Of a DNA stretch of 64,000 nucleotides, positions 21,508-58,901 are shown piece after piece. The DNA is from a bacterium (GTDB taxonomy: Bacteria; Bacteroidota; Ignavibacteria; Kapaibacteriales; UBA2268): the NCBI GenBank assembly GCA_043804925.1, contig JAZDIP010000106.1, positions 796 to 64,795 of the forward strand. The letters are read 5' to 3'. Within the stretch, counting starts at the first letter, position 1. Each line of letters starts with the position of its first letter. The translations under genes and the position numbers were made by a program. Under the pieces are notes generated by a model that saw nothing but the letters and a program-made list of their open reading frames with translations, ran no database searches and was not told where the DNA came from.

Positions 21508-22284
21508 ATGTATGTTCCGTTAAGAGATGAAAGCCAGCCATTGCAGATAAAAATCCCATGGGATAAAAATACTGCCCGTGGTTTTTTTGCAGCTTTGGTT
21601 ATTACTTTTATTTTGCTTTGGGCATCTCCAATTTGGGATTACTTATCTCCCCCAATTCCTGTAACAAACCAAATTAATACAATTCCACTTGAGTTAATTA
21701 ACTTCGGTGAAGGAGACGGAACAGGACTAAGTAAAGGTAATCTTGCTGACGAAGGAAGGGCTCATAAAGGGCAGGAACCCATGTCTGATATGCATGATGC
21801 CGAAGTTGCCGCTAAAACAAAATACAATCAGAATGCTGTCTCTGCCAATCCTGAAGATGCAAGTGATTTTGTTCCAAAAAGCGAATTATCTTCAGACAGG
21901 AAAAATGAAAAGGATGCCGGTTCGGGTACTCGTGATGTAGGAACAAAAGATGGAACTGCCGATGGAACCGGACTTGGCGAAAAAGGTTTTGGACCCGGCT
22001 TAGGTCCGGGCATCGGACCTATTGACTGGGGTGGTGGAGGAAATAGAACAGTACTGTACAAAAAACTTCCACAATATCCCAGCGGAGTAAATACTTCCGC
22101 AGAAATAAAAATCAGGTTTACAGTTTCTCGTGATGGAATAGTGATTAGCATGGTTCCTTTGCAAAAGGGAGACCCCGCTCTCGAGCAGGCGGCAATGAAA
22201 GCTTTGAAGCAATGGCGATTCAATCCTTTAAAGGATGATAAAACTATGTACGGAATAATTACTTTCACTTTCAGGTTGAGTTAA
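21508..22284 (+). CDS. TonB family energy transducer
   Basis: N-terminal TM anchor, a Gly/Pro-rich spacer (GFGPGLGPGIGPIDWGGGGN), and a C-terminal TonB-C fold motif (RFTVSRDGIV...ALKQWRFNP). Confidence 0.8.
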   Translation: MYVPLRDESQPLQIKIPWDKNTARGFFAALVITFILLWASPIWDYLSPPIPVTNQINTIPLELINFGEGDGTGLSKGNLADEGRAHKGQEPMSDMHDAEVAAKTKYNQNAVSANPEDASDFVPKSELSSDRKNEKDAGSGTRDVGTKDGTADGTGLGEKGFGPGLGPGIGPIDWGGGGNRTVLYKKLPQYPSGVNTSAEIKIRFTVSRDGIVISMVPLQKGDPALEQAAMKALKQWRFNPLKDDKTMYGIITFTFRLS

Positions 22285-22286
22285 AT

Positions 22287-22445
22287 ATGTTTGAATCAAT
22301 AATAAATTTCTTTAATGGATTGCCGCTTTATGCACAAATAGCGGTTGTGATACTTCTTTTGATGTTAATTATTTCTATCACAAAGAAATTCATCAAACTC
22401 GCAATTTTCATTGTGATTTTGATTGTGTTGGCTGTGATGATATTT
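22287..22445 (+). CDS. Possible small 2-TM membrane peptide (52 aa)
   Basis: ATG 3 bp after the tonB stop. The ORF is entirely hydrophobic. It is not in the ORF track (<60 aa). Confidence 0.3.
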
Positions 22446-22721
22446 TGAATTTGAAAACATGGAATATTAATTTTCATGTTATTTATTAACTGGCTAAATA
22501 AAATAGATTAAATACAAGTGCACAACTTTTAGACAAATATTTTACTTGCGGTGACACAAAGGAATAAGAGATATTAAATACTTGAGAAACGATTATTTGT
22601 TATATTGAGAGATTGGAATGAGTGAATAAAAAATATGTTAATGGATAATAAATAAATTTAGTTGTAATTAAATTAACTATTTATTTATATTTAACATTAA
22701 TAATTTAGCTAAATTTGTAGT

Positions 22722-23630
22722 ATGGAAAAAATGAAAAATATGATTGTTGAAAGAAAATATTTGCCAGCCTTAAGTAAGCTCTTTTCGGCAATTGTGATGA
22801 ATAGTATTGAACAAAAAGGAACTTCTAAATATATGATAGAAGTTTGTAAAAATAGTGGAATGGATAAGTATCTTGATCCTTCAATAAAGATATCTCAAGT
22901 GTTTGATCTTGTTTATAACTTAATCATTAAAGATTATAGAAATGAGTATATATATAAAAATATTATTGTTCAAAAATTACTTCTTGGTAAACACTCGCTT
23001 AATACAACACAACTATTGACAGAGTTTAGAATAGGAAAAAATAAAGCAGATGTAATATTATTAAACGGTACTTCCTATGTTTACGAAATTAAATCCGAGT
23101 ATGACTCCTTAAAACGGTTGGAAATTCAATTGCGTTCTTATTTAGATGCTTTTGATTTTATAAATGTTATTACATATCCATCCTTAGTTAACAAGATTCT
23201 ACCAGTTATTTCAGATAAAATTGGTGTTTTAGTTTTGACGAATAAAAATACCATATCAACAATTCGCCGACCAAAATCAAATAGAAAAAATATTAATCCT
23301 TTGGTTTTATTTGATTCTCTTAGAAAAGACGAATATTTAAATATAATCAATAAATATTATAGATATATTCCAGATGTACCAAATACAAAAATAAATAAAT
23401 ACTGTAAAGAATTATTTTCAAAAATACCTCCAAATGAAGCACATGATTTGGTTATTAATGTATTAAAAGAAAGAAATCATTCAAATATACTCAAAGAATT
23501 TATCAACAAAGCACCTAAATCTACTTTTGCCTATGCTTTAAGTATTGGTGATAAAAAAAAGAAGTTAGAAAGACTTATTGAGATATTTGATTCAAAGATT
23601 GAGTATAAGAGTTTTTCAAAAGTAAATTAG
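22722..23630 (+). CDS. PD-(D/E)xK-type nuclease-fold protein, sce7726-like (recalled from memory)
   Basis: 302 aa. A candidate catalytic core ADVILLNGTSYVYEIKSE (D ... E-x-K). The coding sequence is AT-rich compared with its neighbours. Confidence 0.55.
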   Translation: MEKMKNMIVERKYLPALSKLFSAIVMNSIEQKGTSKYMIEVCKNSGMDKYLDPSIKISQVFDLVYNLIIKDYRNEYIYKNIIVQKLLLGKHSLNTTQLLTEFRIGKNKADVILLNGTSYVYEIKSEYDSLKRLEIQLRSYLDAFDFINVITYPSLVNKILPVISDKIGVLVLTNKNTISTIRRPKSNRKNINPLVLFDSLRKDEYLNIINKYYRYIPDVPNTKINKYCKELFSKIPPNEAHDLVINVLKERNHSNILKEFINKAPKSTFAYALSIGDKKKKLERLIEIFDSKIEYKSFSKVN

Positions 23631-23640
23631 AGGTTAAAAT

Positions 23641-24579
23641 ATGTATTATCCATATTTAAGGGGAAAACAATTTGAATTAATTTTACTGAGAGATAACGCC
23701 GAATTTATTTCAAAGAATAATATATATCCGATTATAGAACCAGTGAAAACTGATTATAATGCACTACTGCGTGCTATAAAAATATTAAATGAAAATAACG
23801 TAGATTTTGTTTTAGTTGTTAATCCACAAGTTGGTGAAAAACCTATTGATTTTAAAAATTTTTTACAAACTCTTGAATCAGGGAATTTTCTAAAAAACTC
23901 AAAATTATCAATAGGATATATTCTCAATTCAAAATCAAAAATAAAAGAGATTGAATTTCTATTTAACAAATATATACATAACAGTTTTTCAATCATTCAT
24001 TATGGAAGTTCATTTGATAAAGAAATAATAAATATTTTAAAAGAACAAAAAAACATTAATAGACATATTTTTATTGATGGTTTTGCTGGAAAATTATATC
24101 AAAGACAATTCAAGGGTGATGGAATAGCCAGAGCTTTAATTAGAAATGGGTTTAAAGCAAAAAAGAAAAATTCAGATTACCCCTATAATGAGCATTTCTC
24201 TGATTTACATGTTACATATGACGATGAAGGAATGGAAGGATTTGGAGATTTTTTAATCGTTGGAGATGATTATTCAGAAACAGGGGGACCAGCTTATGCA
24301 GTTGCTATTCATTTAACATATATTGATAATGAAGATATGTTTATTTATCATTTTATCTCTGATAGAACTGACTCCCCAACTGATCCTGGAGGTAAATTTT
24401 TTGAAGCACTAGAAAAACTTGTCTCAGAGGTAAATAAACCAAATTCACTTATTTTTAGGTCAAAAGCTTGCCATGAATATTTGAATCTATTTAAAAGAAA
24501 GCATTATCCTGGACTTGGATTTATTAAAAAATTGTCAATGCAACATCATATCGAACTAATGGCTGATTTTTTAAAATAA
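23641..24579 (+). CDS. sce7725-like hypothetical protein (recalled from memory), partner of the upstream gene
   Basis: 312 aa. The N-terminus MYYPYLRGKQFELILLRDN resembles the sce7725 family start. It starts 10 bp after the previous stop, with a GAGGT RBS. Confidence 0.5.
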   Translation: MYYPYLRGKQFELILLRDNAEFISKNNIYPIIEPVKTDYNALLRAIKILNENNVDFVLVVNPQVGEKPIDFKNFLQTLESGNFLKNSKLSIGYILNSKSKIKEIEFLFNKYIHNSFSIIHYGSSFDKEIINILKEQKNINRHIFIDGFAGKLYQRQFKGDGIARALIRNGFKAKKKNSDYPYNEHFSDLHVTYDDEGMEGFGDFLIVGDDYSETGGPAYAVAIHLTYIDNEDMFIYHFISDRTDSPTDPGGKFFEALEKLVSEVNKPNSLIFRSKACHEYLNLFKRKHYPGLGFIKKLSMQHHIELMADFLK

Positions 24580-24592
24580 AAGAAATAATATT

Positions 24593-25609
24593 ATGCTTTA
24601 TTGCTGCCCAAATTGTTTTACAGATATTTTTTTACAAAATCAAATACGAGCTCTTAGTAAGAAACAGGGTAATTGCTCATTTTGTAAAACAAAAAATACC
24701 AAATTAATTAAACCAATAGAATTAATTGATCGATTTGAGCCTTTGTTAAATCTATATGAAAAAGATAATAATGGATTATATCTCAACGAATTAATACAAT
24801 CTGACTGGAAGGTTTTTCAATTCAAAAACTCATCAAGCCAAAAAAAATTATTAAATGCACTTTCGGATGATTTTACTGATTATAGTAAAAAATATAGACC
24901 AATTTTATCAAAGGAACGCAAAAATATTGAGCAATGGGAAAGTTTTAGAGAAGAGTTGAAGCATCATAACAGATTTTTCCCGAAAAACGCAATCAATCTT
25001 AATCAATTGGAGCCATTTGGCAAATATCTCGGATTAATACTTAAGCCAGGTTCACAAAAGTTCTACCGAGCTAGATTGAATACAACAGGCAAACCTATTG
25101 TATTATCGAAAATGGGTAAACCACCTAATAATATTGTTTCAAATGGGAGGGCTAATCCACTTGGAATTTCTTATTTATATGTTGCATCTACCATTGATAC
25201 TGCAATTGCAGAAATTAGAGGACAAAAAGGTGAATTAATTACTGTTGCTGAATTCGAATTAAAAAAAAATTTGGAATTAGCAGATTTACGAGATCCTATT
25301 AAAACAATTAGCCCATTTGATTTTAACTCTAATGATGAATTAGAATTGATATATAAAAATATGCCTTTTCTGATTTTACTCGGTAATGAACTATCAAAAC
25401 CCGTTATGCCAAGGGAGGCAAATTTAGAATATCTTCCGAGCCAATACCTTTCTGAATTATTTAAACATATTGGTTTCCACGGAATAATATATAGAAGCTC
25501 TATTTCAGATGGAAATAATTACGTAATTTTTGAAGATAAAAGATTAAAACCTTATAATACATATCAGTTTATAATTAAAGACGTACAAACTTTTCATGAA
25601 AAAATTTAA
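24593..25609 (+). CDS. Zinc-ribbon + RES-domain protein (putative NAD+-targeting effector)
   Basis: N-terminal C4 zinc ribbon: CCPNCF...(22 aa)...CSFCKT. RES-domain hallmarks: GRANPLGISYLYVASTIDTAIAEI (Arg/Glu) and GIIYRSSISDGNNYVIF (Ser). Confidence 0.65.
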   Translation: MLYCCPNCFTDIFLQNQIRALSKKQGNCSFCKTKNTKLIKPIELIDRFEPLLNLYEKDNNGLYLNELIQSDWKVFQFKNSSSQKKLLNALSDDFTDYSKKYRPILSKERKNIEQWESFREELKHHNRFFPKNAINLNQLEPFGKYLGLILKPGSQKFYRARLNTTGKPIVLSKMGKPPNNIVSNGRANPLGISYLYVASTIDTAIAEIRGQKGELITVAEFELKKNLELADLRDPIKTISPFDFNSNDELELIYKNMPFLILLGNELSKPVMPREANLEYLPSQYLSELFKHIGFHGIIYRSSISDGNNYVIFEDKRLKPYNTYQFIIKDVQTFHEKI

Positions 25610-25634: not shown

Positions 25635-26240
25635 TCACTTAAAAACTCCTGACAAGTCCACTGCTGAATAAACAAGCAATAAGCATAGTATAAAATTTAT
25701 TATATTTATAATTCTTTCATTTCGCAAATGCTTTTTTAATCCTGCTCCGAACAATGCCCATAGTGTTACTGAAATCAGAGCAATGAAAGAAAACAATATT
25801 GAAAAACCAATTAACAGCAATAAATCTTGTGTTATTGGCAACAAAAATGTGGAATACAATGTTAATCCGAAGATTATACCTTTTGGATTTACAAACTGAA
25901 GAATAATTCCTTTAAAAAATGATTTCGATGCTGAACTTTCATCTTCCATATCATATTTTGCCCTGAATAAACCTATTGCCAGCCATAGAATATATATGGC
26001 TCCAATACATCTGAAAGTCGAATGATATAATTGAAAAAAATTATTAAGCGATGATGACAGCCCTGCAGAGATAAGCTGAATAATAAGGAAACCTGTAGCA
26101 ACACCAAATGTAAAACCAATTGCTCTTTTATACCCGTCTTGAATCCCAATAGCAGCACTTGTTAAATTATTGGGTCCCGGTGTAAAAGTTGTAATAATCA
26201 CAAACGTGAAAAGCGACAACCAGTTAATATCCATAATCAT
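25635..26240 (-). CDS. LysE/RhtB family amino-acid exporter
   Basis: About 200 aa, 6 TM helices, N-terminal FTPGPNNL motif. Confidence 0.8.
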   Translation of the reverse strand: MIMDINWLSLFTFVIITTFTPGPNNLTSAAIGIQDGYKRAIGFTFGVATGFLIIQLISAGLSSSLNNFFQLYHSTFRCIGAIYILWLAIGLFRAKYDMEDESSASKSFFKGIILQFVNPKGIIFGLTLYSTFLLPITQDLLLLIGFSILFSFIALISVTLWALFGAGLKKHLRNERIINIINFILCLLLVYSAVDLSGVFK

Positions 26241-26322: not shown

Positions 26323-29300
26323 CTACCTAACCTTAATAAACGGCATCGTATAAGTCTTCATACCGCTTGTGATTCGAATGTAATATGCTCCCGATGTCAG
26401 TGATGATACTTCAAAAGATACATTTTCCGCATTGCTATCAAATGACATTCTTTCATATCCGAGATTATCCAAAATTGTAATCGTACTATTGAAAATATTT
26501 GCCTGTTTAAATGAAATATTAATTATACTTCCGACTGGATTCGGATATAAAGATATAATCTTTTCTGCATCCTCATCAACCGAACTGCCGAAGGAATAAT
26601 ATAACATTATATCAACGTATGATGGTTCACTTTGAGTTAATGTAATTGTTCTTTCTGCATTAATATCAGCCAAACCGACTTTTTCTGCGGCTATTTTCCA
26701 TTGGTTCAATCCTAAATTGGATAAAGAATAATATCCATTTTGAGAATCGTAAGTATATGTATATTTACAAATTTTGCCTGCCTGGTCGGAAGCAAATACA
26801 GTAACACCAAGAGGTAACATTTGTGTATATGAAACACTCATCATATTAAAAATAATCATTTCCACAGTACCGCTAATTTTCCCGGCACCACTGGTAGGAG
26901 TGACTTTTTCAGTTTTAATATATATATCTTCTATCAAACCGCCGGAAGCTTCAATAATATTAGTTTTACGCCATGAATAAACAGGTTCAGCTTCTTCTGA
27001 ATAATATGCAGGATAATAATTCAAATCTGCAGGATATGCCCTGACAATATAATTACTACTAATCGGTACAACAAGATTATAATTTCCATCTGTTGCTACA
27101 GTCGAATTTACATAATCAACAGAATATTTCAATGCATCCGAACCTTCGGCTTCTTCAATTTTGTATGCAACAACAACAGCAGGAATTGGCAAGGCACTTT
27201 CGTCTAATATTGCCCCCTCTATATTAACGGTACTTTTTGGCAGTTGTTCCAATTCAAAATCAAAGTCATTTTTGTTGATGTTTTTCATTAGAGGTGCTTC
27301 GGCAAAATCATATAAAGAAGGATAGAACTGTGCAGAGTATTGACCATCTTTTACTGCGAATGCCCTGAAAGCAGTATCTTTTCCTATCTCGAAAGAGAAA
27401 TTACCATCTGCATCCGTAAATACCGTCCTGATTTCACCTGTTTCCAAAATGAAATGGACACTTGCATCTTCTATTGTAGCAGAATTGTCATTTGTAACCA
27501 CACCACTGATTTTATATTTAATGATTTTATCAGTAACCATTGCCGTAATATCCAAAGTATCTCCTGCAGTTAATGAAAGCTTCTCGGCATCGGCAAAATC
27601 AGTTTTGTTATTGTACCAGCAATCCTGAAATAATTCTCCCATTAGGTGCAAATAATAATCTCCGCCCGGGACTGCAAACAGAGCTTTAGCTTCGGCATCA
27701 GTTGACAAAGTAAATGTCGAACTGAAATCCGTGGGGTATAAGTTTAAGGTTGCATCAGGATAAATTACTGAACCTTGCTTAACCAGAACCGATAAATACG
27801 CAGTACCGGAACCTTCCAAGACATCTATTTTCCATGACTGCTGTATATTAACAGCCGGATTATTTTTTAAGTATGCTTCCAGTGTTACTGAAAAAGTCCC
27901 TGAACTTTCGGGAGTCCAATTTATCAATCCCGATGATTTGCCAACTATCATACCAACAGGTGCTTCTGCTAATTCGAACAATACAGTATCTATGCTATTT
28001 GTGATGGCTTCTGCATCATAAGAATAAAGTTGTCCAACATTTGCTTTGGTTGTTGGAGTTGATTTAAAGCTGATTGTAGGATTAGTGTGTGAATGTCTAT
28101 CAAGATATATCGCAACTACTTTTGTCCTATCTATTTCATTCACATAAACATCGTCGGAAGTATAATACTGATATCCGATTTTATCAACCTTTATTGTATA
28201 ATGGTCGGATGCTATATCACGAAAACTAAAACCGCCGTGTTGGTTCGTCGTTTGTATTGAAACAATTGCATTTTTACTATTTAAAAGATAAACAACCGCT
28301 CCCTGAATACTTTCATCTGCCTGAGTCTTTTCATTTTTCAAATCAATAACATTATTATTAATAAAAACTCCACCGTAAATATTGTACTCACCGTCAGGAT
28401 ATGTTGTTGCTCTCACAACCATCAGATGATTAATAAACTCAGTGTTCTCATCAACATTAATTAATGTTGCATCAAACCAATGCGGTACAACTTCTTCAGT
28501 TATATGATAGAAACCGGATGTATAGTTACCATAAGGAATGGCTCTAACGATATATTTCCCGGATTCAAGATTCCTGAAAGTAAAATTCCCATTATCATCG
28601 CTTTCAATAGTTCTTACACCGGATGTTTCCTGATGCTTGTATAGAATTAGCATTGCCTTAACTCCGGTACCCATATTATCCCTGACCTTTCCGTTTATAG
28701 CATTTAATGATACCGGATATTCTTTGAGTACAAAATTAAGATTTTCGATATCTTCATTTTCAATAACTAAATATTCTGATTCAAGATAATCGTATGAATT
28801 ATTATAATACATTGGAATAAATTTTTTGGGATTATAATCATCATAAGCGATTATTTTATAATGATAACGATTATTTAATTCAATCGAATAAAAACCATCA
28901 TTTGCAGTTGAAACCGTATAAATGTTATTAATTTTATTCAAATATAGTTCAATAACTTCAACAGTACCAGGATACACAGGATAACCTGTGCTTTCTTCAC
29001 TTATATAACCACTGACAGTATGAAGTTCATATGTTTCAACATCAATTTCGATATTTTGAGTTTGTCCGCAAGCTATCTCAACTATATTTGCGTCAAATTC
29101 GAAATCCTGATTGGCATACCATTCAGAAATTAAGTTATCTCCTGATACATAAACTACATAAGCCCCTTCAAGAACTTCAATACTAAAATATCCTGTTTCA
29201 TCAGTTGTCGCATAATAATAAACAGTTGTATCTATTGGAAACAAAGATTTAACTGTGATATTTGCACCGGAAACAGGTTCATCATTTTGATTATTAACAT

Positions 29301-29991
29301 AACCGTTTAAATATGTAAGCTGTTCACAACTTCTAACAAGAATCTCCCAGTTTTGAGTTTCCTGTACAATAGGATAATCAACATGCCGGGCAATTACAGT
29401 TACGTTATATAATCCTATATTTGCCGGTGTCCATGTAAGTGTCCCGCTGCTTGCTTCGATTGACATACCCGGGACAGAAGGTTCCATTAATGAAAAAGTA
29501 ACTGAACCTGCATCTGAGGCAACAGCATCAACGTCATAGCTGTATAATGCGGAAACTATACCATTTAATTCTGTTTCACCGGGAGTGGTTGTAAAAGTTA
29601 TCGTCGGTCCTGCGAGAAAATGCATGTATTCCGAAGCAGGTCCCTCTCCTATTATATTTTGCCCGGTAACGTAAACAGAATAATTATCAACAACTGTAAA
29701 TGTGTGAGAATAACTGTAAACAGTCATTTCGTCACCATCACGAGTTATGGTACTGCTCAAAGAAAAATCTCCGGTGTCTTCGGTATTTCCGGTAGCAAGA
29801 TAGATATTAAACTTGTCGGTCAAAGCGAAGTCAGAATCATTTTGCCATGTAAGAAGAAGAACATAGTTACTGCCATCATAGTTGATAACAGTATTCAGGT
29901 TTATTGGTGCCGTTGGCAATTGCGACCACAAATTAGCTGAACAAAAAAATGCACTCAAGAAAACAATTCCTAAAAGTAAATTCTTAGCCAT
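26323..29991 (-). CDS. Large secreted surface protein with carboxypeptidase-regulatory-like beta-sandwich repeats and T9SS C-terminal sorting domain
   Basis: 1222 aa with signal peptide. Multiple about 80-aa repeats of the type G-x-V-x-D...P-x-x-A-x-V...D-x-x-G-x-F. C-terminal ...LTSGAYYIRITSGMKTYTMPFIKVR. Confidence 0.8.
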   Translation of the reverse strand: MAKNLLLGIVFLSAFFCSANLWSQLPTAPINLNTVINYDGSNYVLLLTWQNDSDFALTDKFNIYLATGNTEDTGDFSLSSTITRDGDEMTVYSYSHTFTVVDNYSVYVTGQNIIGEGPASEYMHFLAGPTITFTTTPGETELNGIVSALYSYDVDAVASDAGSVTFSLMEPSVPGMSIEASSGTLTWTPANIGLYNVTVIARHVDYPIVQETQNWEILVRSCEQLTYLNGYVNNQNDEPVSGANITVKSLFPIDTTVYYYATTDETGYFSIEVLEGAYVVYVSGDNLISEWYANQDFEFDANIVEIACGQTQNIEIDVETYELHTVSGYISEESTGYPVYPGTVEVIELYLNKINNIYTVSTANDGFYSIELNNRYHYKIIAYDDYNPKKFIPMYYNNSYDYLESEYLVIENEDIENLNFVLKEYPVSLNAINGKVRDNMGTGVKAMLILYKHQETSGVRTIESDDNGNFTFRNLESGKYIVRAIPYGNYTSGFYHITEEVVPHWFDATLINVDENTEFINHLMVVRATTYPDGEYNIYGGVFINNNVIDLKNEKTQADESIQGAVVYLLNSKNAIVSIQTTNQHGGFSFRDIASDHYTIKVDKIGYQYYTSDDVYVNEIDRTKVVAIYLDRHSHTNPTISFKSTPTTKANVGQLYSYDAEAITNSIDTVLFELAEAPVGMIVGKSSGLINWTPESSGTFSVTLEAYLKNNPAVNIQQSWKIDVLEGSGTAYLSVLVKQGSVIYPDATLNLYPTDFSSTFTLSTDAEAKALFAVPGGDYYLHLMGELFQDCWYNNKTDFADAEKLSLTAGDTLDITAMVTDKIIKYKISGVVTNDNSATIEDASVHFILETGEIRTVFTDADGNFSFEIGKDTAFRAFAVKDGQYSAQFYPSLYDFAEAPLMKNINKNDFDFELEQLPKSTVNIEGAILDESALPIPAVVVAYKIEEAEGSDALKYSVDYVNSTVATDGNYNLVVPISSNYIVRAYPADLNYYPAYYSEEAEPVYSWRKTNIIEASGGLIEDIYIKTEKVTPTSGAGKISGTVEMIIFNMMSVSYTQMLPLGVTVFASDQAGKICKYTYTYDSQNGYYSLSNLGLNQWKIAAEKVGLADINAERTITLTQSEPSYVDIMLYYSFGSSVDEDAEKIISLYPNPVGSIINISFKQANIFNSTITILDNLGYERMSFDSNAENVSFEVSSLTSGAYYIRITSGMKTYTMPFIKVR

Positions 29992-52223: not shown

Positions 52224-53117
52224 TTAAAAACGGCTAAACTCCAAATGAATATTCGATCCCTTTACGCTGTGAGTTAAAGCTCCTGATGAAATAGCATTTA
52301 CCCCTGTTTTAACGTATTCTCCGAGATTACTCAGATTTATTCCTCCTGATGCTTCGATAAAAACATCTTCTCCTGCATTATCTCTAATGTATTCTACCAT
52401 CTTAGATATAGTTGAAGGACTCATATTGTCGAGTAAAAAGCCATCTACTCCTATTTCCAATGCTTCATTAATTTCTTCTTTATTTTCAACTTCAATTTCG
52501 ATTTTTAAATTTTTTGGATTATTATTTCTAAGCATCTCAATTGCTTGTTTTATACCACCTGCCGCTTTAATATGATTATCCTTAATTAATATACCGGAAG
52601 ACAAATCCAGACGGTGATTGAAACCACCTCCGACAGTTACGGCATACTTTTCAAATAATCTCAGTCCGGGAGTGGTTTTCCTCGTATCAAGAATCTTGAC
52701 ATTATAGGGCTTTGCTATCTCAGCATATTTATTTGTCAATGTCGCTATTCCGCAAAGCCGTTGCAGTAAATTAAGCATTACCCTTTCGTGAGAGAGGATA
52801 ATATCTGTTCTGCCTTTTATCACTGCAATTATTTCACCATTTTTAACCTTGTCCCCGTCTTTGAATTTCAGGTCAATTTGACTATTCCCGTCAAAGAAAT
52901 ACTCTAATGTTTGCTCTCCTGCAAAAATTAAATCTTCTTCTGCCTGCAAAAAAGCAGTTATGGAGTTATGAGTTGTGGGTTGAGGGTTGTTTAATGTATT
53001 TGAAAAAATCGCATTAGTTGTTGCATCACCATCGGGCATATCCTCGGCAAGAAATTCATTAATCTTTTTGATAATGTATTCCTCAGGCAGTTTCTTTATT
53101 TGTTCATATTCTATCAT
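52224..53117 (-). CDS. nadC: Nicotinate-nucleotide pyrophosphorylase (quinolinate phosphoribosyltransferase)
   Basis: QAPRTase motifs (ILDTRKTTPGLR, KDNH). 4-bp overlap with nadA. Confidence 0.9.
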   Translation of the reverse strand: MIEYEQIKKLPEEYIIKKINEFLAEDMPDGDATTNAIFSNTLNNPQPTTHNSITAFLQAEEDLIFAGEQTLEYFFDGNSQIDLKFKDGDKVKNGEIIAVIKGRTDIILSHERVMLNLLQRLCGIATLTNKYAEIAKPYNVKILDTRKTTPGLRLFEKYAVTVGGGFNHRLDLSSGILIKDNHIKAAGGIKQAIEMLRNNNPKNLKIEIEVENKEEINEALEIGVDGFLLDNMSPSTISKMVEYIRDNAGEDVFIEASGGINLSNLGEYVKTGVNAISSGALTHSVKGSNIHLEFSRF

Positions 53118-54034
53118 GAAAGCTCCAGCATCCTCTCAATTGGTTTTAATGCTCTTAATCTCAAATTTTCTTCAATATGAATTTGCGGTTCCATTTTCTC
53201 AAGTGCAGATATAATTTTATCAACTGTATTCAGCTTCATATAAGGGCAGTTATTACAACTGCATCCATCGAGATTTGGTACTGTATAAAAAGATTTGCCT
53301 TCTGTCTTTAACTCTAATTGATGAATTATTCCGGGTTCAGTTAGTATGATAAATTCCTTAGAATTTGAATTAACTGCTTGTTTTATTATTCCTGAAGTTG
53401 AACCAATAAAATCTGCATACGCCAAAATATTTTCGGGACATTCAGGATGTGCAAGGACTTTTGCATCAGGATATTTGTTCATCAGATTAATCAGTTCAAG
53501 TTCCGAAAAAACAGTATGAACTTCGCATGACCCATCCCACAAAACCATATCCCTTCCGGTTTTTTTAATTACATGTTTCCCTAAATATTTGTCAGGAGCA
53601 AATAAAATCTTTTCGTCTTTTGGGAGAGAATTTACTATTTTTTCAGCATTGGAAGAAGTACAGATAATATCAGACATCGCCTTGACCTGTGTGGAGCAGT
53701 TAATGTATGATATGACAGTATGACCGGGATGTGCATCAATCCATTCTTTAAATTTGTCGGCAGGAGTATTGTCAGCAAGCGAACATCCGGCATTCATATC
53801 AGGCAGCAAAACTACTTTTGTAGGATTTAAAATCTTTGCAGTCTCAGCCATAAAATGTACACCCGCAAAAACAATGACATCTGCTTCTGTCTTTTTAGCC
53901 GCTTGTGCAAGAGCAAGTGAATCACCCAAAAAATCCGCTATGTCCTGTATTTCCGATTCCTGATAATAATGAGCAAGAATTATAGCATTCTTCTCTTTTT
54001 TCAATCTATTTATTTTATCGATTTTTGATTCCAT
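53114..54034 (-). CDS. nadA: Quinolinate synthase A
   Basis: ILAHYYQ, three Cys ligands for the 4Fe-4S cluster (CS...C...C), about 305 aa. Confidence 0.9.
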   Translation of the reverse strand: MESKIDKINRLKKEKNAIILAHYYQESEIQDIADFLGDSLALAQAAKKTEADVIVFAGVHFMAETAKILNPTKVVLLPDMNAGCSLADNTPADKFKEWIDAHPGHTVISYINCSTQVKAMSDIICTSSNAEKIVNSLPKDEKILFAPDKYLGKHVIKKTGRDMVLWDGSCEVHTVFSELELINLMNKYPDAKVLAHPECPENILAYADFIGSTSGIIKQAVNSNSKEFIILTEPGIIHQLELKTEGKSFYTVPNLDGCSCNNCPYMKLNTVDKIISALEKMEPQIHIEENLRLRALKPIERMLELS

Positions 54035-54357: not shown

Positions 54358-54659
54358 AAACAACCTGATAATGATTAAATACTTACATAATACAAAAATA
54401 GGAAATAATTATCTTTGTTTAAATATAATTAACCACAAATATTTGAAGTGTAAAAGTGTAAAAGGGATTAGGGTAATTTTTACGGTTACAGTATCTGATT
54501 TATTCGTAGAGTTTGCATTGAACTTTTTTTTGAATAAATAACAAAGAGCATTATATCTGATTATTATATTTAAAATCAATAATTCATAATAATTATAACA
54601 ATTTTTTTTGTAAATTGTTTTTAAAAATATTGTTAACACAAAACAGTCATGTTAAATAT

Positions 54660-55379
54660 ATGAAAAGTACTGAAATAAAATTACCTAAAAAAATAACACC
54701 GTGTCCAATTATAGATGCGTTGTTGGAGATTAGGTTTTCAATTAATACTGATCCAAATGCTGTATTTGGACAATTATATTCATATTTCAAAGAATCATTT
54801 TCAAAGCCAGAATCTTTACCAATTTTACAAGTACCTGAATATATAAGAAAAGTTGACCCGAATTTTCAATTCAAACCTCATTATCGACTTGAAAAGGATG
54901 GGTTTATTCTACAAATTGGTTCAGATGTTTTAACGATTAGTTCTTTTCCAGAATATATTGGATGGAATAATTTCTCTGAAATGATTTATGAAATATTAAA
55001 AAAAGTGAAAACTTCTGATATAATTGATAGAATTTCAAGGCTTGGTTTGAGATATGTTAATTTTTTTGAATTGAATATTTTCGACCATATAAATTTAGAT
55101 GTTCATATGACTGGAAATTCTATTACAGAAAAAAATATTATAATAAAAACTGAAATAAATGGTGATGATTTTAAGCAAACATTACAAATTTCAAATCATG
55201 CACAAAGTGGTGAAAAATTTGGTTCAATAATTGATATTGATACTTTTAAAGATATTGAATTAGAAGATTTTTTTAATAATCAAGAAAAGTTGATAGAATT
55301 TGTACATTTACAAGAAAAACACTTATTTTTTAGTTTATTAAAAGATGAATTTTTGCAAAATTTTAATCCGGAGTATTAG
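54660..55379 (+). CDS. Hypothetical protein, TIGR04255-like (recalled N-terminal P-I-x-E/D-A-x-x-E-I-R-F motif)
   Basis: MKSTEIKLPKKITPCPIIDALLEIRFS... Very AT-rich. First gene of a 3-gene operon. Confidence 0.5.
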   Translation: MKSTEIKLPKKITPCPIIDALLEIRFSINTDPNAVFGQLYSYFKESFSKPESLPILQVPEYIRKVDPNFQFKPHYRLEKDGFILQIGSDVLTISSFPEYIGWNNFSEMIYEILKKVKTSDIIDRISRLGLRYVNFFELNIFDHINLDVHMTGNSITEKNIIIKTEINGDDFKQTLQISNHAQSGEKFGSIIDIDTFKDIELEDFFNNQEKLIEFVHLQEKHLFFSLLKDEFLQNFNPEY

Positions 55380-55381
55380 AA

Positions 55382-55705
55382 ATGTCTACTGTAACAAATA
55401 CAACAACTTCAACCGCAATTTTATTTTTCGCATTAACATCAATTAATCCGACAATGTATAGTAATCCTTATTACTCTACTGATAATTTGATTCCTTTAAA
55501 AAATCATTCTTATCGTGTCAATAAAGATTTAGTTTATTTGAAAAATATAGAATTTGATGAATCAAAAAGTTACATGTTGATTACTAATGAAAATGAAATA
55601 TTTAATGTTTTATCGAATTTCTCAAATAAAATATTACATCACTTAGTTGATATTGAACCTGAATATTCTGATATATTAAATAAGCATTTTTGGGAATTAA
55701 TATGA
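55382..55705 (+). CDS. Hypothetical protein
   Basis: 107 aa. Starts 3 bp after the previous stop. Confidence 0.45.
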   Translation: MSTVTNTTTSTAILFFALTSINPTMYSNPYYSTDNLIPLKNHSYRVNKDLVYLKNIEFDESKSYMLITNENEIFNVLSNFSNKILHHLVDIEPEYSDILNKHFWELI

Positions 55706-56319
55706 AAATTGAAGATATTGATCTTTATTTACCAAAATTTCTGTCAGCGGAATCCTATAGAATATTAATAAAAGGACTTAATGACTTTCCTGAAAATATT
55801 GATACAAGGTTATATACTACCTATTTAAATCAAAAAAATTTAATTTATCAAGGAGATGGAATTCAAGACTTATTAGTAATTAATCTACCTAAAAGCGAAA
55901 TTAATAAAGTTCCATGTATGATATTGTCAAATACATGTGATATTGATTTGCATAATAAACGAAAATTACCAACAAAAATAGTTTATACCCCTATATTTAA
56001 TCTTGAAAAATTTTATAAAAAGTTAAAATCAGAATCAAAGGATAAAGAAGGCATACTTTCCTTTATTAAATCTGTAAAAAGACAGGAAGTATCACAGATA
56101 TTTTATTTACCAAAATTAAATGAAAAAATTGATGAATCTATAATATTTTTTGATTTTATCTGTAGCTGCGATAATGGATTTATTGATAGAGAAAATTTAA
56201 AAACTCAGAGATTATTTACTTTAAGTGATTATGGATCGTACTTGTTCATATTTAAATTATCAATTCATTTTACAAGAATTCAAGACAAAGTTGAAAGAAG
56301 AAGTATTATCGATGAATAA
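55702..56319 (+). CDS. Hypothetical protein
   Basis: ATGA overlap with the previous gene. 205 aa with several Cys (CMILSNTCD, FICSCDNG). Confidence 0.5.
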   Translation: MKIEDIDLYLPKFLSAESYRILIKGLNDFPENIDTRLYTTYLNQKNLIYQGDGIQDLLVINLPKSEINKVPCMILSNTCDIDLHNKRKLPTKIVYTPIFNLEKFYKKLKSESKDKEGILSFIKSVKRQEVSQIFYLPKLNEKIDESIIFFDFICSCDNGFIDRENLKTQRLFTLSDYGSYLFIFKLSIHFTRIQDKVERRSIIDE

Positions 56320-56606
56320 TTTTTGAGGGTGTAAACTAAGGTTTTCTTAAGTATGTCTTATTGATTATCTACTCTCTTAGCCATTATATCATGAACTTAA
56401 ATTTGGAGTTCCCCCAATATTATGGACAAAAAATTAAGATAGTTTCTTCCTTTCATAGTCAATAAGAGTATGGTGAAAACCATTTCAAAATCATTTCGAA
56501 ACTAATATAAAACTATTAGTTTTATATTAGTTTTATAATAGTTTTCTTGCATTTAGTTTTCGGCGATATATATTCGCATTGAGTTTAAAATTATTTTTAT
56601 GAATCA

Positions 56607-57230
56607 ATGCGAAGGTGCTTAATGAACAACGAAATCACAACCACAGAAAAAAAACCCTGGGAACAGCTCAAAGGCGAAAAATCCAGGCAATTTTTAGCTT
56701 TTTGCCAATACCTCGAGCTTGGCAACAGGCGTAAATTCAGCAATATCGCATCCTATACCAATGTATCTCCGGGTTGTATTCACAATTGGGCTCAAAAATG
56801 GAATTGGGAAGAAAGAGCTTCGGCTTTCGACAGGCATTCTATAGAAATGAATAAAAAGGAAAAAAGGGAGCAATACGAAAAAGTTAAAAATATTCACTCA
56901 AAAAGTATGAATAATATGTCGCTTCTTATCTACAAACTCATTGATTTAATCAATAAAAAAACCCGCTCTGAGCTTAACAAAATGTCGGATATGGAGCTTA
57001 CGGATTTTTATAAAGCCCTTAAATTATTAACTAATATCCTGCCTTCCCTTTCGGATATCGCTTCTGCCAATTTGAGTCAGTCCAAACCTCTGTGGCAGGA
57101 AGAAGAAACTCCTTTGGATTTTATGACTATTTACGATAAACACCCAGAATTGATTGATGATGTTAACGACTTACTTGGCAAAATAATCAATGCGGAAACT
57201 AATGATGCTCCTTTATTTAATCGAATATAG
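56607..57230 (+). CDS. Putative phage terminase small subunit (by position and predicted HTH)
   Basis: About 200 aa directly upstream of terL. Its N-terminal third has a helix-turn-helix-like segment (FSNIASYTNVSPGCIHNWAQKW). Confidence 0.4.
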   Translation: MRRCLMNNEITTTEKKPWEQLKGEKSRQFLAFCQYLELGNRRKFSNIASYTNVSPGCIHNWAQKWNWEERASAFDRHSIEMNKKEKREQYEKVKNIHSKSMNNMSLLIYKLIDLINKKTRSELNKMSDMELTDFYKALKLLTNILPSLSDIASANLSQSKPLWQEEETPLDFMTIYDKHPELIDDVNDLLGKIINAETNDAPLFNRI

Positions 57231-57261
57231 AAAAATTATTAGGATAAAAAAAAATAAAAAA

Positions 57262-57388
57262 GATAAAAAACGATAAAAAAGATAAAAAACGATAAAAAAG
57301 ATAAAAAACGATAAAAAAGATAAAAAACGATAAAAAAGATAAAAAACGATAAAAAAGATAAAAAACGATAAAAAAGATAAAAAACGAT
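57262..57388. repeat. 19-bp tandem repeat GATAAAAAACGATAAAAAA x ~6.7 (A6 tracts phased every 9-10 bp)
   Basis: Directly visible. It ends 4 bp before the terL ATG. Confidence 0.85.
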
Positions 57389-57392
57389 AAAA

Positions 57393-58901
57393 ATGAATAA
57401 AATTCTTTTAGATAATGACATAAATATAACAAACTTCAGAAATGCCTCTCCCGCATCCTTGGCTTATATTATAAGTAAAGGCAGGTTTGAATTTCCTGAC
57501 CATATCAAACTGTTAGACAATTTGCTCGTTAAATTATCCCGTAGAGAATTCAATAAACTAATAATCAATATGCCACCGAGACATGGCAAATCCGAACTTA
57601 TTTCGAGATATTTTCCCTGTTGGTATTTGGGCACTTACCCTTCTCACAGAATTATATTGACCTGTTACGGTTCGTCACTGGCAGAATCATTTGGAAGAAA
57701 AGTTAAAAATATCATTTCCGAATTTGGAAATAACTTTTTCAATTTATGCTTAAGTCCTCATTCAAAATCAGCAAAACGTTTTGATATAGAAGGTAATTCA
57801 GGCGGGATGGATTTTGTCGGTGCAGGAGGTGCCATTACCGGAAAAGGTGCGGACCTGCTGATAATAGACGACCCGATAAAAAACAGTGCTGAAGCCGCTT
57901 CTTTAAATATGAGGGAAGTTCTTTGGGATTGGTTTAATTCTACCGCAATGACCCGGCTTGAATCCGATGGTGTCGTTGTGGTTGTTATGACACGTTGGCA
58001 TGAAGATGATTTGTGCGGTAGAATTATCGCAAATAATACAATTATCACTCCCGATGATTATTTTAAGAAAAATATTTCGCTTTTAGATGATTCATGGATA
58101 TTAGCAAAGCTACCGGCTATAGCTACTGAAGGTGATTGTATTGGCAGAAGCCCGGGTGAAGCTTTGTGGAGTAGTAGATTTCCAATTAAAAATTTAAAAA
58201 ATGCAGAGAAAAGAATGGGCTCTTATTTGTTCTCGGCTCTTTACCAGCAATCACCTTCTCCGGCAAGTGGAAATATTTATCAACGAAAACATTTCAGGTA
58301 CTTCACCGAAAATGATGAGTTCTATTTTCTCGAAGCAATGGGGCAGGATTATGACACTAAAAAGACTATAGCAAAACAATACTGTTCCACATTTATTGTT
58401 GTTGACCTCGCAGTTACACTAAAGCAGTCTTCAGATTTCACAGTACTTCTTGTTTTTAAAACAACACCGCAAAACGATATATTGGTTGTTGATATTGAAC
58501 GGCAGAAATGCGAAGGAGCAAACCACAAAAATATTATCAAAAGAATGAATGATAAGTGGACACCTTTAATGATAGGTATTGAGTCCAATCAGTATCAGAC
58601 TGCATTAATTCAGGAATTGCAAAAAGAAGGATTTTCCATCAAATCATTAAGAGCTGATAAGGAAAAAAAGATTCGTGCATTACCCATGCAGGCAAGATTG
58701 GAAGCAGGAACGGTATTCTTCCCTTTAAAAGCAAGCTGGCTTCATGACTTTGAAGAAGAACTTCTGATGTTCCCGAATGCCACCCACGACGACCAGGTTG
58801 ATGCCTTTGCATATATCTCATACATGGTCAGTGATTTCTCAAAAGAGAATCCGAAGAGTGCAGGTATCAGAAAAAAAGAAAAAATAGCATCGAAATTTTG
58901 A
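57393..58901 (+). CDS. terL: Phage terminase large subunit
   Basis: Walker A PPRHGKSE, Walker B LLIIDDP, and coupling motif TRWHEDDL. The C-terminal RNaseH-like nuclease has conserved Asp residues (VVDLAV, ATHDDQVDAF). Confidence 0.85.
   Translation: MNKILLDNDINITNFRNASPASLAYIISKGRFEFPDHIKLLDNLLVKLSRREFNKLIINMPPRHGKSELISRYFPCWYLGTYPSHRIILTCYGSSLAESFGRKVKNIISEFGNNFFNLCLSPHSKSAKRFDIEGNSGGMDFVGAGGAITGKGADLLIIDDPIKNSAEAASLNMREVLWDWFNSTAMTRLESDGVVVVVMTRWHEDDLCGRIIANNTIITPDDYFKKNISLLDDSWILAKLPAIATEGDCIGRSPGEALWSSRFPIKNLKNAEKRMGSYLFSALYQQSPSPASGNIYQRKHFRYFTENDEFYFLEAMGQDYDTKKTIAKQYCSTFIVVDLAVTLKQSSDFTVLLVFKTTPQNDILVVDIERQKCEGANHKNIIKRMNDKWTPLMIGIESNQYQTALIQELQKEGFSIKSLRADKEKKIRALPMQARLEAGTVFFPLKASWLHDFEEELLMFPNATHDDQVDAFAYISYMVSDFSKENPKSAGIRKKEKIASKF

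Follow-up and report, generated by a model that had tools for sequence, protein, structure and literature searches.

Organization and composition of the locus

The locus lies within the window, that is, the entire stretch of 64,000 nucleotides that was analyzed, and consists of three genes on the forward strand: g1 (22722..23630; 302 aa), g2 (23641..24579; 312 aa), and g3 (24593..25609; 338 aa). The first belongs to the sce7726/P4 cII family, with a predicted PD-(D/E)xK nuclease fold, the second to the sce7725 family, with a predicted TIM-barrel-like fold, and the third is an aRES-type protein that combines a zinc ribbon, a HEPN/RES-NTD1 region, and a RES domain. The gaps are 10 nt between g1 and g2 and 13 nt between g2 and g3, so that the ORF coordinates reproduce exactly the layout described in the original prediction, namely, three co-directional genes 10-13 bp apart with tonB upstream and a convergent lysE downstream. 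The NCBI call for g1 is 299 aa, with an implied start at 22731, 9 nt downstream of that of the 302-aa call. On the upstream side, the gene for a TonB_C protein (21508-22284; Pfam, 7e-8) comes first, then a hydrophobic ORF of 53 aa, and finally a 273-nt spacer (22449..22721, forward strand; 20.5% GC); on the downstream side, 25 nt separate the end of g3 from the convergent LysE-family gene (25635-26240; Pfam, 7e-18). The cassette is thus flanked here by housekeeping genes and lies outside any defense island.

The spacer is the sole sizeable non-coding gap ahead of the three genes and is the presumed promoter region of the operon. A sigma-70 consensus scan yielded 29 promoter-like sites against 25.3 expected from shuffles, which is not above expectation, and therefore no promoter is assigned within it. 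The regulatory-signal scan found no intrinsic terminator, and no Rfam elements were found in the window, the borders of the triad included. Because these borders are devoid of tRNA genes and att-like repeats, with AT-rich repeats occurring only at chance level, a mobile-element boundary is not called.

The GC content of the triad is 26.9%, compared with a window mean of 33.3% (s.d. 3.2% for windows of the same size), which places it in the lowest 3.4%, and its genes have GC3 values of 0.14-0.20 as opposed to 0.30-0.44 for the neighboring genes. The AT-richness relative to the flanks, which had been noticed from the outset, is therefore genuine, at about 2 s.d., but it is not unique, given that the segment at 53.6-57.4 kb of the window is equally AT-rich.

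Protein families of the three components

Both NCBIfam assignments anticipated in the original prediction, sce7726-like for g1 and sce7725 for g2, are supported by matches above the respective cut-offs. In the case of g1, the match to NF033832 (sce7726) reaches 6e-58 (195.8 bits; cut-off 70). The cII protein of satellite phage P4, which itself bears the RefSeq name 'sce7726 family', is recovered by BLASTP at 5e-17, and PF26915 (Phage_P4_cII) is a precomputed match for P0121, a protein identical to g1; the local copy of Pfam gave no match for g1. The nuclease core (22938..23267, forward strand; residues ~73-182) includes E75, K79, E101, D110, E122-I-K124, D128, R132, and Q136, all invariant among 46 sequences including P4 cII, and the cII proteins encoded at Beta-type loci keep them as well, so that the D…E-x-K core originally spotted in g1 extends across the family. 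The AlphaFold model matches PD-(D/E)xK nucleases and displays the alpha-beta-beta-beta-alpha-beta core with E…D…(D/E)xK metal-binding residues that mark this superfamily. Judging from the alignment and the model, g1 has the fold of a PD-(D/E)xK nuclease, and its predicted catalytic motif is intact; to call it a 'sensor' is a guess.

The match of g2 to NF033831 (sce7725) covers residues 2-311 of 312 (6e-96; 321.7 bits; cut-off 60). In the AlphaFold model, g2 adopts a TIM-barrel-like fold, with conserved polar residues located at the C-terminal ends of the barrel strands, and about 30 residues are conserved in at least 93% of the sce7725 sequences. Confidence in the AlphaFold models is moderate (pLDDT 70 and 79), and residues 171-219, the most conserved stretch of g2, are poorly modelled.

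The connection between g2 and P4 Beta comes from profile comparison. With a deep profile of 211 sequences, hhalign gives 89.1% (E 2.3e-6; 118 columns), against 1.7% for the reversed control, in a default local alignment that spans only the N-terminal ~120 residues; with single-sequence or shallower profiles, the value is only 1-34%, the shallower profiles accounting for 4-34%. BLASTP of g2 against P4 Beta yields no match. Likewise, g2 does not match Pfam PF14350 (Beta_protein) at E <= 0.1, although P4 Beta itself matches this model at 4e-56; a PF14350 scan of diverse sce7725 proteins, with one match in 32 (E 0.19), is essentially negative, and the Beta model of PADLOC 2.0 is not reached by g2. 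A BFVD structure search did not return P4 Beta and matched only an uncharacterised protein of Gordonia phage Powerball (E 1e-5), for which tblastn found no tie to Beta, and a scan of viral_contigs with P4 Beta recovered only near-identical P4 copies. Taking these comparisons together, we consider g2 likely to be a remote homolog of P4 Beta at the superfamily level.

The original prediction hinged on g3 matching the RES model, and it does so at 52.3 bits against a threshold of 23.2 (PF08808; 9e-14), over residues 182-314 (25136..25534, forward strand); HEPN_RES_NTD1 (PF18870) is matched as well (4e-8; 34 bits; threshold 27.4). The C4 zinc ribbon, the other half of the predicted fusion, is found at the N-terminus (24602..24685, forward strand; C5-x2-C8 … C28-x2-C31), where conservation is complete for C28 and C31 and 90% or more for C5 and C8. 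Within the RES domain, R186, Y196, E207, and S302 are invariant in 47 triad-type sequences and remain so when standalone aRES-like proteins are aligned with them, and NCBI names the g3 homologs 'RES family NAD+ phosphorylase'. Sequence and profile searches of g3 against solved structures gave no RES match and did not reach the solved RES toxins, and hence the equivalence of the putative active site rests on the Pfam match and the conserved residues. BLASTP of g3 against Gop, the toxin of P4, found nothing. A sub-threshold match to TIGR04402 'mobilome CxxC…CxxC' gave rise to the idea that Gop is a relative of the g3 zinc ribbon; this is rejected, because Gop has only one cysteine, along with two hydrophobic helices, and the hhalign value is 0.2%.

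PADLOC, one of the checks named in the original prediction, recognizes the cassette in part: the 'cll' model matches g1 (1.3e-22), and no PADLOC 2.0 model matches g2 or g3.

Distribution, mobility, and conservation as a unit

The pattern scan identified 434 relatives among 185,579 species genomes, and the family comprises 1379 clusters at 50% identity, so that the triad represents a sizeable aRES-type clade. We fetched 80 species-genome loci with sce7725 identity of 43-68%, of which 78 are full triads and 2 are cut by contig ends; these loci span many phyla, bacterial and archaeal, including one Nanoarchaeota MAG. Culturable mesophiles with a triad include Pseudomonas cichorii LCYJ23, Cupriavidus basilensis KF708, Pseudoalteromonas sp. 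RW-H-Ap-1, Moraxella osloensis (on pYHS1), and Pseudomonas aeruginosa PA_HN002 (on a mobilizable element). The distribution is patchy and cross-domain, with high identity between phyla. Genes for restriction-modification and toxin-antitoxin systems abound in the neighborhoods, as do IS genes: at one locus (L001), the triad adjoins type I restriction-modification, HicAB, and RadC genes, and among 140 immediate neighbors in 35 loci, restriction-modification subunits are the commonest families. The expectation that the triad would sit in defense islands in other genomes is therefore borne out to the extent that restriction-modification neighbors are frequent elsewhere, but they are not universal.

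The triad is also cargo of a Pseudomonas aeruginosa integrative mobilizable element (PMC9394441), and its presence on such an element and on conjugative or mobilizable plasmids would fit a three-component toxin-antitoxin or addiction module, in which a RES toxin, a Beta-like antitoxin (sce7725), and a regulator or accessory nuclease (sce7726) stabilize carrier plasmids, mobilizable elements, and islands, with phage defense absent or incidental. RES domains are, after all, classical toxins of toxin-antitoxin systems, Gop and Beta act as a toxin-antitoxin pair, and the close translational coupling between g2 and g3, with a median distance of 1 nt from the g2 stop to the g3 start across the triad loci, agrees with the stoichiometric control that is typical of such pairs. 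We nevertheless regard this explanation as improbable. There is neither an Xre/DUF2384-type antitoxin nor a small labile partner in the operon, the candidate antitoxin g2 being a highly conserved, enzyme-like barrel of 312 aa; most of the fetched loci are chromosomal, some of them with housekeeping flanks; and the closest characterised relatives of both halves of the cassette have been validated as anti-phage. Furthermore, toxin-antitoxin behavior and abortive-infection defense are not mutually exclusive.

The order sce7726→sce7725→RES is found in 78 of the 78 assessable species-genome loci, that is, the three genes co-occur as a unit elsewhere, as the original prediction required, and the same order recurs, at identities as low as 32-35%, in plasmids of Shinella, Pseudorhizobium, and Moraxella and in a phage-like contig of faecal origin. 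In addition, the three proteins co-diverge, with Mantel correlations of 0.79-0.89 between their pairwise identities, values that none of 500 permutations reached. This identity of order, along with the short median g2-g3 spacing and the co-divergence, makes it very unlikely that g3 is an ordinary standalone aRES gene that happens to adjoin a separate two-gene system, g1-g2, as a consequence of the clustering of defense genes. Such independence might have been suspected, considering that aRES proteins are reported as standalone, without operonic association, and active alone (bioRxiv 10.64898/2026.01.28.702374), that standalone homologs of g3 are found on Klebsiella, Salmonella, and Bacillus plasmids, and that in one sce7725 variant of Enterococcus faecium, the next gene encodes a GNAT protein, not a RES protein. 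However, the triad-type RES proteins are distinct from the standalone plasmid homologs: they are shorter (~335-340 aa vs 365-457 aa), and the identity between the two groups is only 23-28%.

A role outside defense, in DNA repair or recombination or in NAD/ADP-ribose metabolism on mobile DNA, with the TIM barrel acting as a metabolic enzyme and RES supplying ADPR-1''P as a substrate or signal, is the least probable of the explanations considered, despite the resemblance of g1 to the repair and excision nucleases NucS and XisH, in view of the patchy, cross-phylum spread, the composition atypical for the host, the gene content of the neighborhoods, in which no metabolic genes conserved beside the cassette were found among those examined, and the defensive character of the homologous P4 and aRES systems.

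Proposed mechanism

The explanation that we favor, and consider probable if by no means certain, is that g1-g2-g3 form a single horizontally mobile operon that encodes a tripartite anti-phage system, probably of the abortive-infection type, with g3 as the effector and g1 and g2 in control. The proposal of a candidate anti-phage system made in the original prediction gains strength from the validated relatives, P4 gop-beta-cII and aRES, and the function put forward here is drawn by analogy with them. Once activated, the RES domain of g3 would phosphorolyse NAD+, yielding nicotinamide and ADP-ribose-1''-phosphate, and the loss of NAD+ would arrest the growth of the infected cell. The control module would consist of g1 and g2, the putative counterparts of P4 cII and Beta. 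Most likely, g2 would hold the RES enzyme silent, similarly to the way in which Beta neutralises Gop in P4, and g1 might add the sensing of the invader, via DNA or a phage protein, or else a second, nucleolytic activity. An NAD+ phosphorylase would, in effect, have replaced Gop, the membrane toxin of P4. These role assignments for g1 and g2 are modelled on Beta and Gop, the latter of which is unrelated to RES.

A broader, more tentative possibility, and one that we consider less likely than not, is that cII-type and Beta/sce7725-type proteins constitute a portable sensing and restraining chassis for unrelated effectors, and that sce7725 is a true enzyme. The candidate effectors would then include Gop in P4, the aRES-type NAD+ phosphorylase in the triad, the GNAT acetyltransferase in Enterococcus, and M78 peptidases or other proteins encoded beside plasmid Beta/cII pairs, and the conserved residues of sce7725 might make, destroy, or bind a small-molecule or nucleic-acid ligand that couples infection to the release of the effector. 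If true, this would account both for the way in which aRES-type enzymes are switched on and for the functions of cII and Beta in P4.

Returning to the tripartite operon with a RES effector, its parts are already known, the protection by gop-beta-cII having been reported in 2022 and aRES in 2026, and it is the combination of a cII/Beta-type pair with an aRES-type effector that is undescribed in the literature searched. The claim that this triad had not been described therefore holds for the combination, but the families of all three parts have been described, and to that extent, the novelty was overstated. If the proposed function is correct, the cassette represents a new subtype rather than a new principle of immunity. 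Its interest lies in linking two experimentally validated, mechanistically opaque anti-phage systems. On the P4 side, homologs of cII and probable homologs of Beta appear as conserved partners of a different, biochemically tractable effector, the predicted output of which (NAD+ loss and ADPR-1''P) is easy to measure and could serve as a read-out for cII/Beta-type sensing and toxin restraint. On the aRES side, a widely transferred clade of these proteins comes with operon partners instead of standing alone. This clade matters for annotation because the current PADLOC models recognize only the cII component, and it also bears on the prediction of applicable phage counter-measures, such as the NARP1-AP phosphatase and aRad1.

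Comparison with known systems

Among the systems with a RES catalytic domain, the RES-Xre toxin-antitoxin modules (ResTA, MbcTA, NatRT) share with the triad this domain and, presumably, the chemistry of NAD+ phosphorolysis, which for g3 is extrapolated from the characterized enzymes. The triad differs in having no Xre/DUF2384 antitoxin: g1 and g2 contain no HTH or Xre domain, and the operon has no such small ORF. Instead, g3 is accompanied by one protein with a nuclease fold and another with a TIM-barrel-like fold, and g3 itself has an additional region of ~180 aa, with the zinc ribbon and NTD1.

The likeness to aRES is closer. The aRES system (Osterman, …, Sorek, January 2026; bioRxiv 10.64898/2026.01.28.702374) protects Escherichia coli through the depletion of NAD+ to ADPR-1''P and growth arrest. 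The published detection rule combines the RES Pfam domain, for which the paper prints the accession PF00808, taken here to mean PF08808, with PF18870 (HEPN_RES_NTD1) and a protein length of 300-600 aa (bioRxiv 10.64898/2026.01.28.702374), and g3, at 338 aa and with both domains above threshold, falls under this rule. The CxxC…CxxC ribbon and the R/Y/E/S active-site residues are common to g3 and the standalone enterobacterial homologs, the ribbon cysteines being present in both Klebsiella and Salmonella aRES-like proteins, and the same reaction products and growth arrest would be expected of g3 by analogy. The difference is that aRES is a single-gene system, whereas the RES protein of the triad is, in all the assessable loci and on the plasmids, the product of the third gene of a conserved operon. 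Given that the published aRES works alone, RES activation does not, as a rule, depend on partners.

The other relative, gop-beta-cII, with Ghisotti et al. 1990 as its source as cited in PMC9122126 and 'gop_beta_cll' as its name in DefenseFinder and PADLOC, guards against phages lambda and P1, and its Gop component becomes toxic when Beta is absent (Rousset et al. 2022, PMC9122126); the cell-death activity of the system is triggered by a phage accessory gene, orf184 (bioRxiv 10.1101/2023.04.06.535777). Both systems consist of three genes, encoding a cII-type nuclease-fold protein, which in the triad is g1, a Beta-type protein of ~310-355 aa, with g2 as its probable counterpart in the triad, and a third component that is toxic in P4 and, by analogy, would be so in the triad. 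However, g3 is a cytoplasmic RES enzyme unrelated to Gop, a protein of 133 aa that combines a coiled coil with two transmembrane helices, and no Gop-like ORF with two transmembrane helices is found in the triad operon. The gene arrangements differ as well: P4 and six plasmid Beta loci have the organization X→Beta→←cII, with cII convergent, as opposed to cII→sce7725→RES on one strand in the triad, and the cII proteins of the triad have an extra N-terminal helical region of ~70 aa. With a relative of P4 cII and a probable relative of Beta joined to an aRES-type RES enzyme, the triad is very probably a hybrid variant of two known anti-phage systems.

A compositionally atypical three-gene cassette

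The three co-directional genes of the cassette, called as ORFs on the forward strand, encode a sce7726/cII-type protein (g1, 22722-23630), a sce7725 protein (g2, 23641-24579) and a RES protein (g3, 24593-25609). They are separated by gaps of 10 and 13 nt and lie, as originally noted, between tonB and a convergent lysE: upstream, a 273-nt spacer separates g1 from a 53-aa hydrophobic ORF, which is preceded by a TonB_C gene (21508-22284) and a SPOR-domain gene, and downstream, 25 nt from g3, is the LysE-family gene. The coding sequence is indeed more AT-rich than the flanks, with a GC content of 26.9% where the window averages 33.3% (sd 3.2% among same-size windows, of which it falls in the lowest 3.4%) and GC3 of 0.14-0.20 compared with 0.30-0.44 in neighbouring genes. 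A search of the cassette borders for tRNA genes, att-like repeats and Rfam elements found none, and scans for consensus promoters and terminators were uninformative. The 53-aa ORF (22287-22448, forward strand), strongly hydrophobic and without a family match, begins 3 nt past the tonB stop; it possibly encodes a small membrane component of the tonB operon and lies outside the conserved triad.

The g1 protein matches NCBIfam sce7726 (6e-58), the PADLOC component 'cll' (1.3e-22; the spelling with lowercase L's obscures the link to cII) and phrog_984. The cII protein of phage P4 is itself named 'sce7726 family protein' in RefSeq, and BLASTP aligns it with g1 over 150 residues (5e-17), with the D…E-I-K motif inside the alignment. 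The precomputed Pfam family of the close homologs of g1, including an identical protein, is PF26915 (Phage_P4_cII); the Pfam-A copy that we scanned yielded no family for either g1 or P4 cII and, given this annotation of the identical protein, appears to lack PF26915. Judging from sequence comparison, g1 is a cII-type PD-(D/E)xK protein with a predicted metal-binding motif that is intact, in line with the restriction-endonuclease-like D…E-x-K core initially attributed to it. The initial identification of g2 as a member of the sce7725 family proved correct over the full length of the protein (NCBIfam, 6e-96); it also matches phrog_34524, with no match in Pfam or PADLOC. Likewise, the predicted fusion of a zinc ribbon to a RES domain in g3 is evident from a CxxC…CxxC ribbon at the N-terminus and matches to Pfam RES (9e-14) and HEPN_RES_NTD1 (4e-8). 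The homologs of g3 are named 'RES family NAD+ phosphorylase' by NCBI, and C28, C31, R159, R161, R186, Y196, E207 and S302 are invariant. By its sequence, g3 is an aRES-type enzyme (aRES being antiphage RES-domain proteins) with its putative catalytic residues intact.

Conservation and horizontal spread of the triad

A scan with the sce7725 alignment across 185,579 species, each represented by one genome, recovered 434 relatives, and the best 80 of these 434 loci (43-68% identity) were examined. The suggestion that the triad is conserved elsewhere as a unit was corroborated: sce7726, sce7725 and RES follow one another on one strand in all of the best 80 loci, 78 of them full triads and two interrupted by contig ends. 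Among the groups represented are Pseudomonadota, Bacteroidota, Desulfobacterota, Nitrospirota, Planctomycetota, Spirochaetota, Campylobacterota, Actinomycetota, Verrucomicrobiota and, on the archaeal side, a Nanoarchaeota MAG. The triad is also found on metagenome contigs, Shinella and Pseudorhizobium plasmids (g3 identity 36-38%), a Moraxella plasmid (sce7725 identity 35%) and a 7.8-kb faecal 'Bacteriophage sp.' contig (identity 32%). The pairwise-identity matrices of the three proteins are correlated (r = 0.79-0.89; 0/500 permutations as high), and the first g3 start lies a median of 1 nt from the g2 stop, which indicates that the three genes are inherited, and probably translated, together; identities of 60-70% between phyla, along with the atypical composition, indicate horizontal spread. 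The cassette is thus a single inherited unit that has spread horizontally. In a decayed triad on a plasmid of Arthrobacter sp. FW306-05-C (L102, 3106-5660), sce7726 remains whole, an IS3-family transposase cuts sce7725 short after ~156 aa, and the RES gene is absent downstream.

Genomic context

The idea that the triad resides in defence islands held only in part. In one locus, L001, a type I restriction-modification operon precedes the cassette and RadC, a nucleotidyltransferase and HicAB follow it, and among 140 immediate neighbours at 35 loci the top families, with 5-8 members each, are MADS-like and type I/II methyltransferases, type I specificity subunits and type IIG enzymes, followed by helicases, RadC and integrases; the flanks in the window and in a Nitrospirota locus, however, are housekeeping genes. 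A RES protein, sce7725 and sce7726 are mentioned in passing among the 8 genes of a Pseudomonas aeruginosa integrative mobilizable element (PMC9394441), as is a sce7726/sce7725 pair within a low-GC, strain-specific island of Leptospira interrogans Hardjo (PMC12457778). The cassette is therefore often, but not always, found in defence or mobile regions.

Elsewhere in the window, a second AT-rich block (~25.6-26% GC over 53.6-57.4 kb) includes four ORFs without a Pfam match (54615-55379, 55382-55705, 55690-56319 and 56607-57230), and after them a terminase large subunit is encoded at 57393-58901 (Terminase_6N and Terminase_6C, both ~1e-11); 54615-58901 probably represents the margin of a prophage or of some phage-like element. 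Adjoining it on the reverse strand (52224-54034) are two genes for making NAD+ de novo, nadC (quinolinate phosphoribosyltransferase, 2.5e-60) and nadA (quinolinate synthase, 3e-121), whose proximity to the NAD+-degrading RES gene, ~27 kb away, is probably coincidental. A 1222-aa protein (26323-29991, reverse strand) combines repeated CarboxypepD_reg domains and He_PIG Ig domains with a C-terminal Por_Secre_tail, a type IX secretion sorting signal that suggests a Bacteroidota/FCB-group host.

A remote relationship between sce7725 and Beta

In phage P4, gop (133 aa) and beta (355 aa, PF14350) are accompanied by a convergent cII. BLASTP detects no similarity between g2 and P4 Beta, and PF14350 does not match sce7725. 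The N-termini of the two families share the pattern Y-Y-P-x-L-R…E…L…(I/L)-P-(I/L)-I, and the hhalign signal grew as the sce7725 profile deepened, from a probability of 4% with 46 sequences (A1) through 34% with 83 sequences from the loci to 89% with 211 sequences (Neff 5; E 2.3e-6, 118 columns), compared with 1.7% for the last profile against reversed Beta. Remote homology of sce7725 and Beta is therefore likely, albeit not proven; g2 is a barrel-like protein, probably related to Beta, whose putative active face is conserved. The sce7725 family comprises 1379 clusters (50% identity, E <= 1e-3) of uniform, single-domain proteins of ~310-320 aa, and g2 is better conserved than either partner, homologs having a median identity of 52% to the window copy, versus 40% for g1 and 43% for g3. 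In BFVD, the g2 model has a single significant structural match among viral proteins, A0A5J6TRS2, an uncharacterised 379-aa protein of Gordonia phage Powerball (Foldseek E 1e-5, prob 1.00, TM 0.35-0.40), which tblastn does not link to P4 Beta.

All six plasmid Beta loci (L089-L094) have a convergent cII/sce7726 gene (E 1e-8 to 1e-27) with an abutting or overlapping 3' end, so that the partner of cII can be Beta or sce7725. The upstream genes vary, including M78/ImmA-IrrE peptidases (L090 and L094, with one nearby in L092), a reverse transcriptase two genes upstream of Beta (L089) and unannotated proteins of ~340-350 aa (L091, L093), which suggests an 'X-Beta-cII' family wider than the lone P4 example. 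In an Enterococcus plasmid variant (L101, E. faecium plasmid p114-2, 3108-5513; L104, 6532-8937), a PD-(D/E)xK-like protein (D…E-L-K), not recognised by the sce7726 model, precedes sce7725 (31% identity, NCBIfam 3e-101) and a GNAT acetyltransferase occupies the RES slot; this single gene arrangement in two records hints at further effector swapping. The 10.5-kb UNVERIFIED_ORG record 'Listeria phage LM 4-14-1' has a matching series of ORF lengths around sce7725 and may be a copy of this part of the Enterococcus plasmid, not a Listeria phage.

Proposed function and relationship to known systems

We infer that the cassette is an abortive-infection-type defence system. As the effector, the RES protein would turn NAD+ into nicotinamide and ADPR-1''P and halt growth; g2 might restrain it, as Beta does Gop, or act as a signal transducer; and g1 could detect a phage protein or the DNA of the invader, or contribute nucleolytic damage. 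A toxin-antitoxin or addiction module serving mobile elements is an unlikely reading, although not one that excludes defence. With RES-Xre toxin-antitoxin systems the triad has only the catalytic domain in common, and it lacks an Xre-type antitoxin. That these are two independent systems that simply lie clustered is highly improbable in the face of synteny, co-divergence and coupling, and a non-defence role, in repair or metabolism, is the least probable of all.

The original reading of the triad as a candidate anti-phage system is strengthened by two related systems, aRES and gop-beta-cII, both validated experimentally. The aRES proteins, defined in January 2026 by a length of 300-600 aa and the presence of both a RES and a PF18870 domain, respond to infection with NAD+ depletion yielding ADPR-1''-phosphate and growth arrest; three enterobacterial examples protect E. 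coli, and phages counter them with a NARP1-associated phosphatase or aRad1 inhibitors (Osterman et al., bioRxiv 10.64898/2026.01.28.702374). Unlike g3, aRES-like plasmid relatives from Klebsiella (413 aa), Salmonella (457 aa) and B. thuringiensis (365 aa), with 23-28% identity to g3, stand alone without sce7725/sce7726 neighbours, and the triad RES proteins are shorter. The P4 locus protects against lambda and P1 (Rousset et al., PMC9122126), Gop is toxic without Beta (Ghisotti et al., as cited by Rousset et al., PMC9122126), and the phage accessory gene orf184 triggers the cell-death activity of the locus (bioRxiv 10.1101/2023.04.06.535777). Gop, a small coiled-coil protein with two transmembrane helices, is unrelated to g3 but takes the corresponding place in P4 beside cII and Beta, the probable counterparts of g1 and g2, which, together with the shortness of the triad RES proteins, is compatible with regulation outsourced to g1 and g2. 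The claim of novelty stands in part: all three families are catalogued and the related systems are known, and we found no description of the triad as a system in the literature searched. What is apparently undescribed is a widespread aRES-type clade tied firmly to a homolog of P4 cII and a likely relative of Beta; the triad would on this view be a hybrid of aRES and gop-beta-cII.
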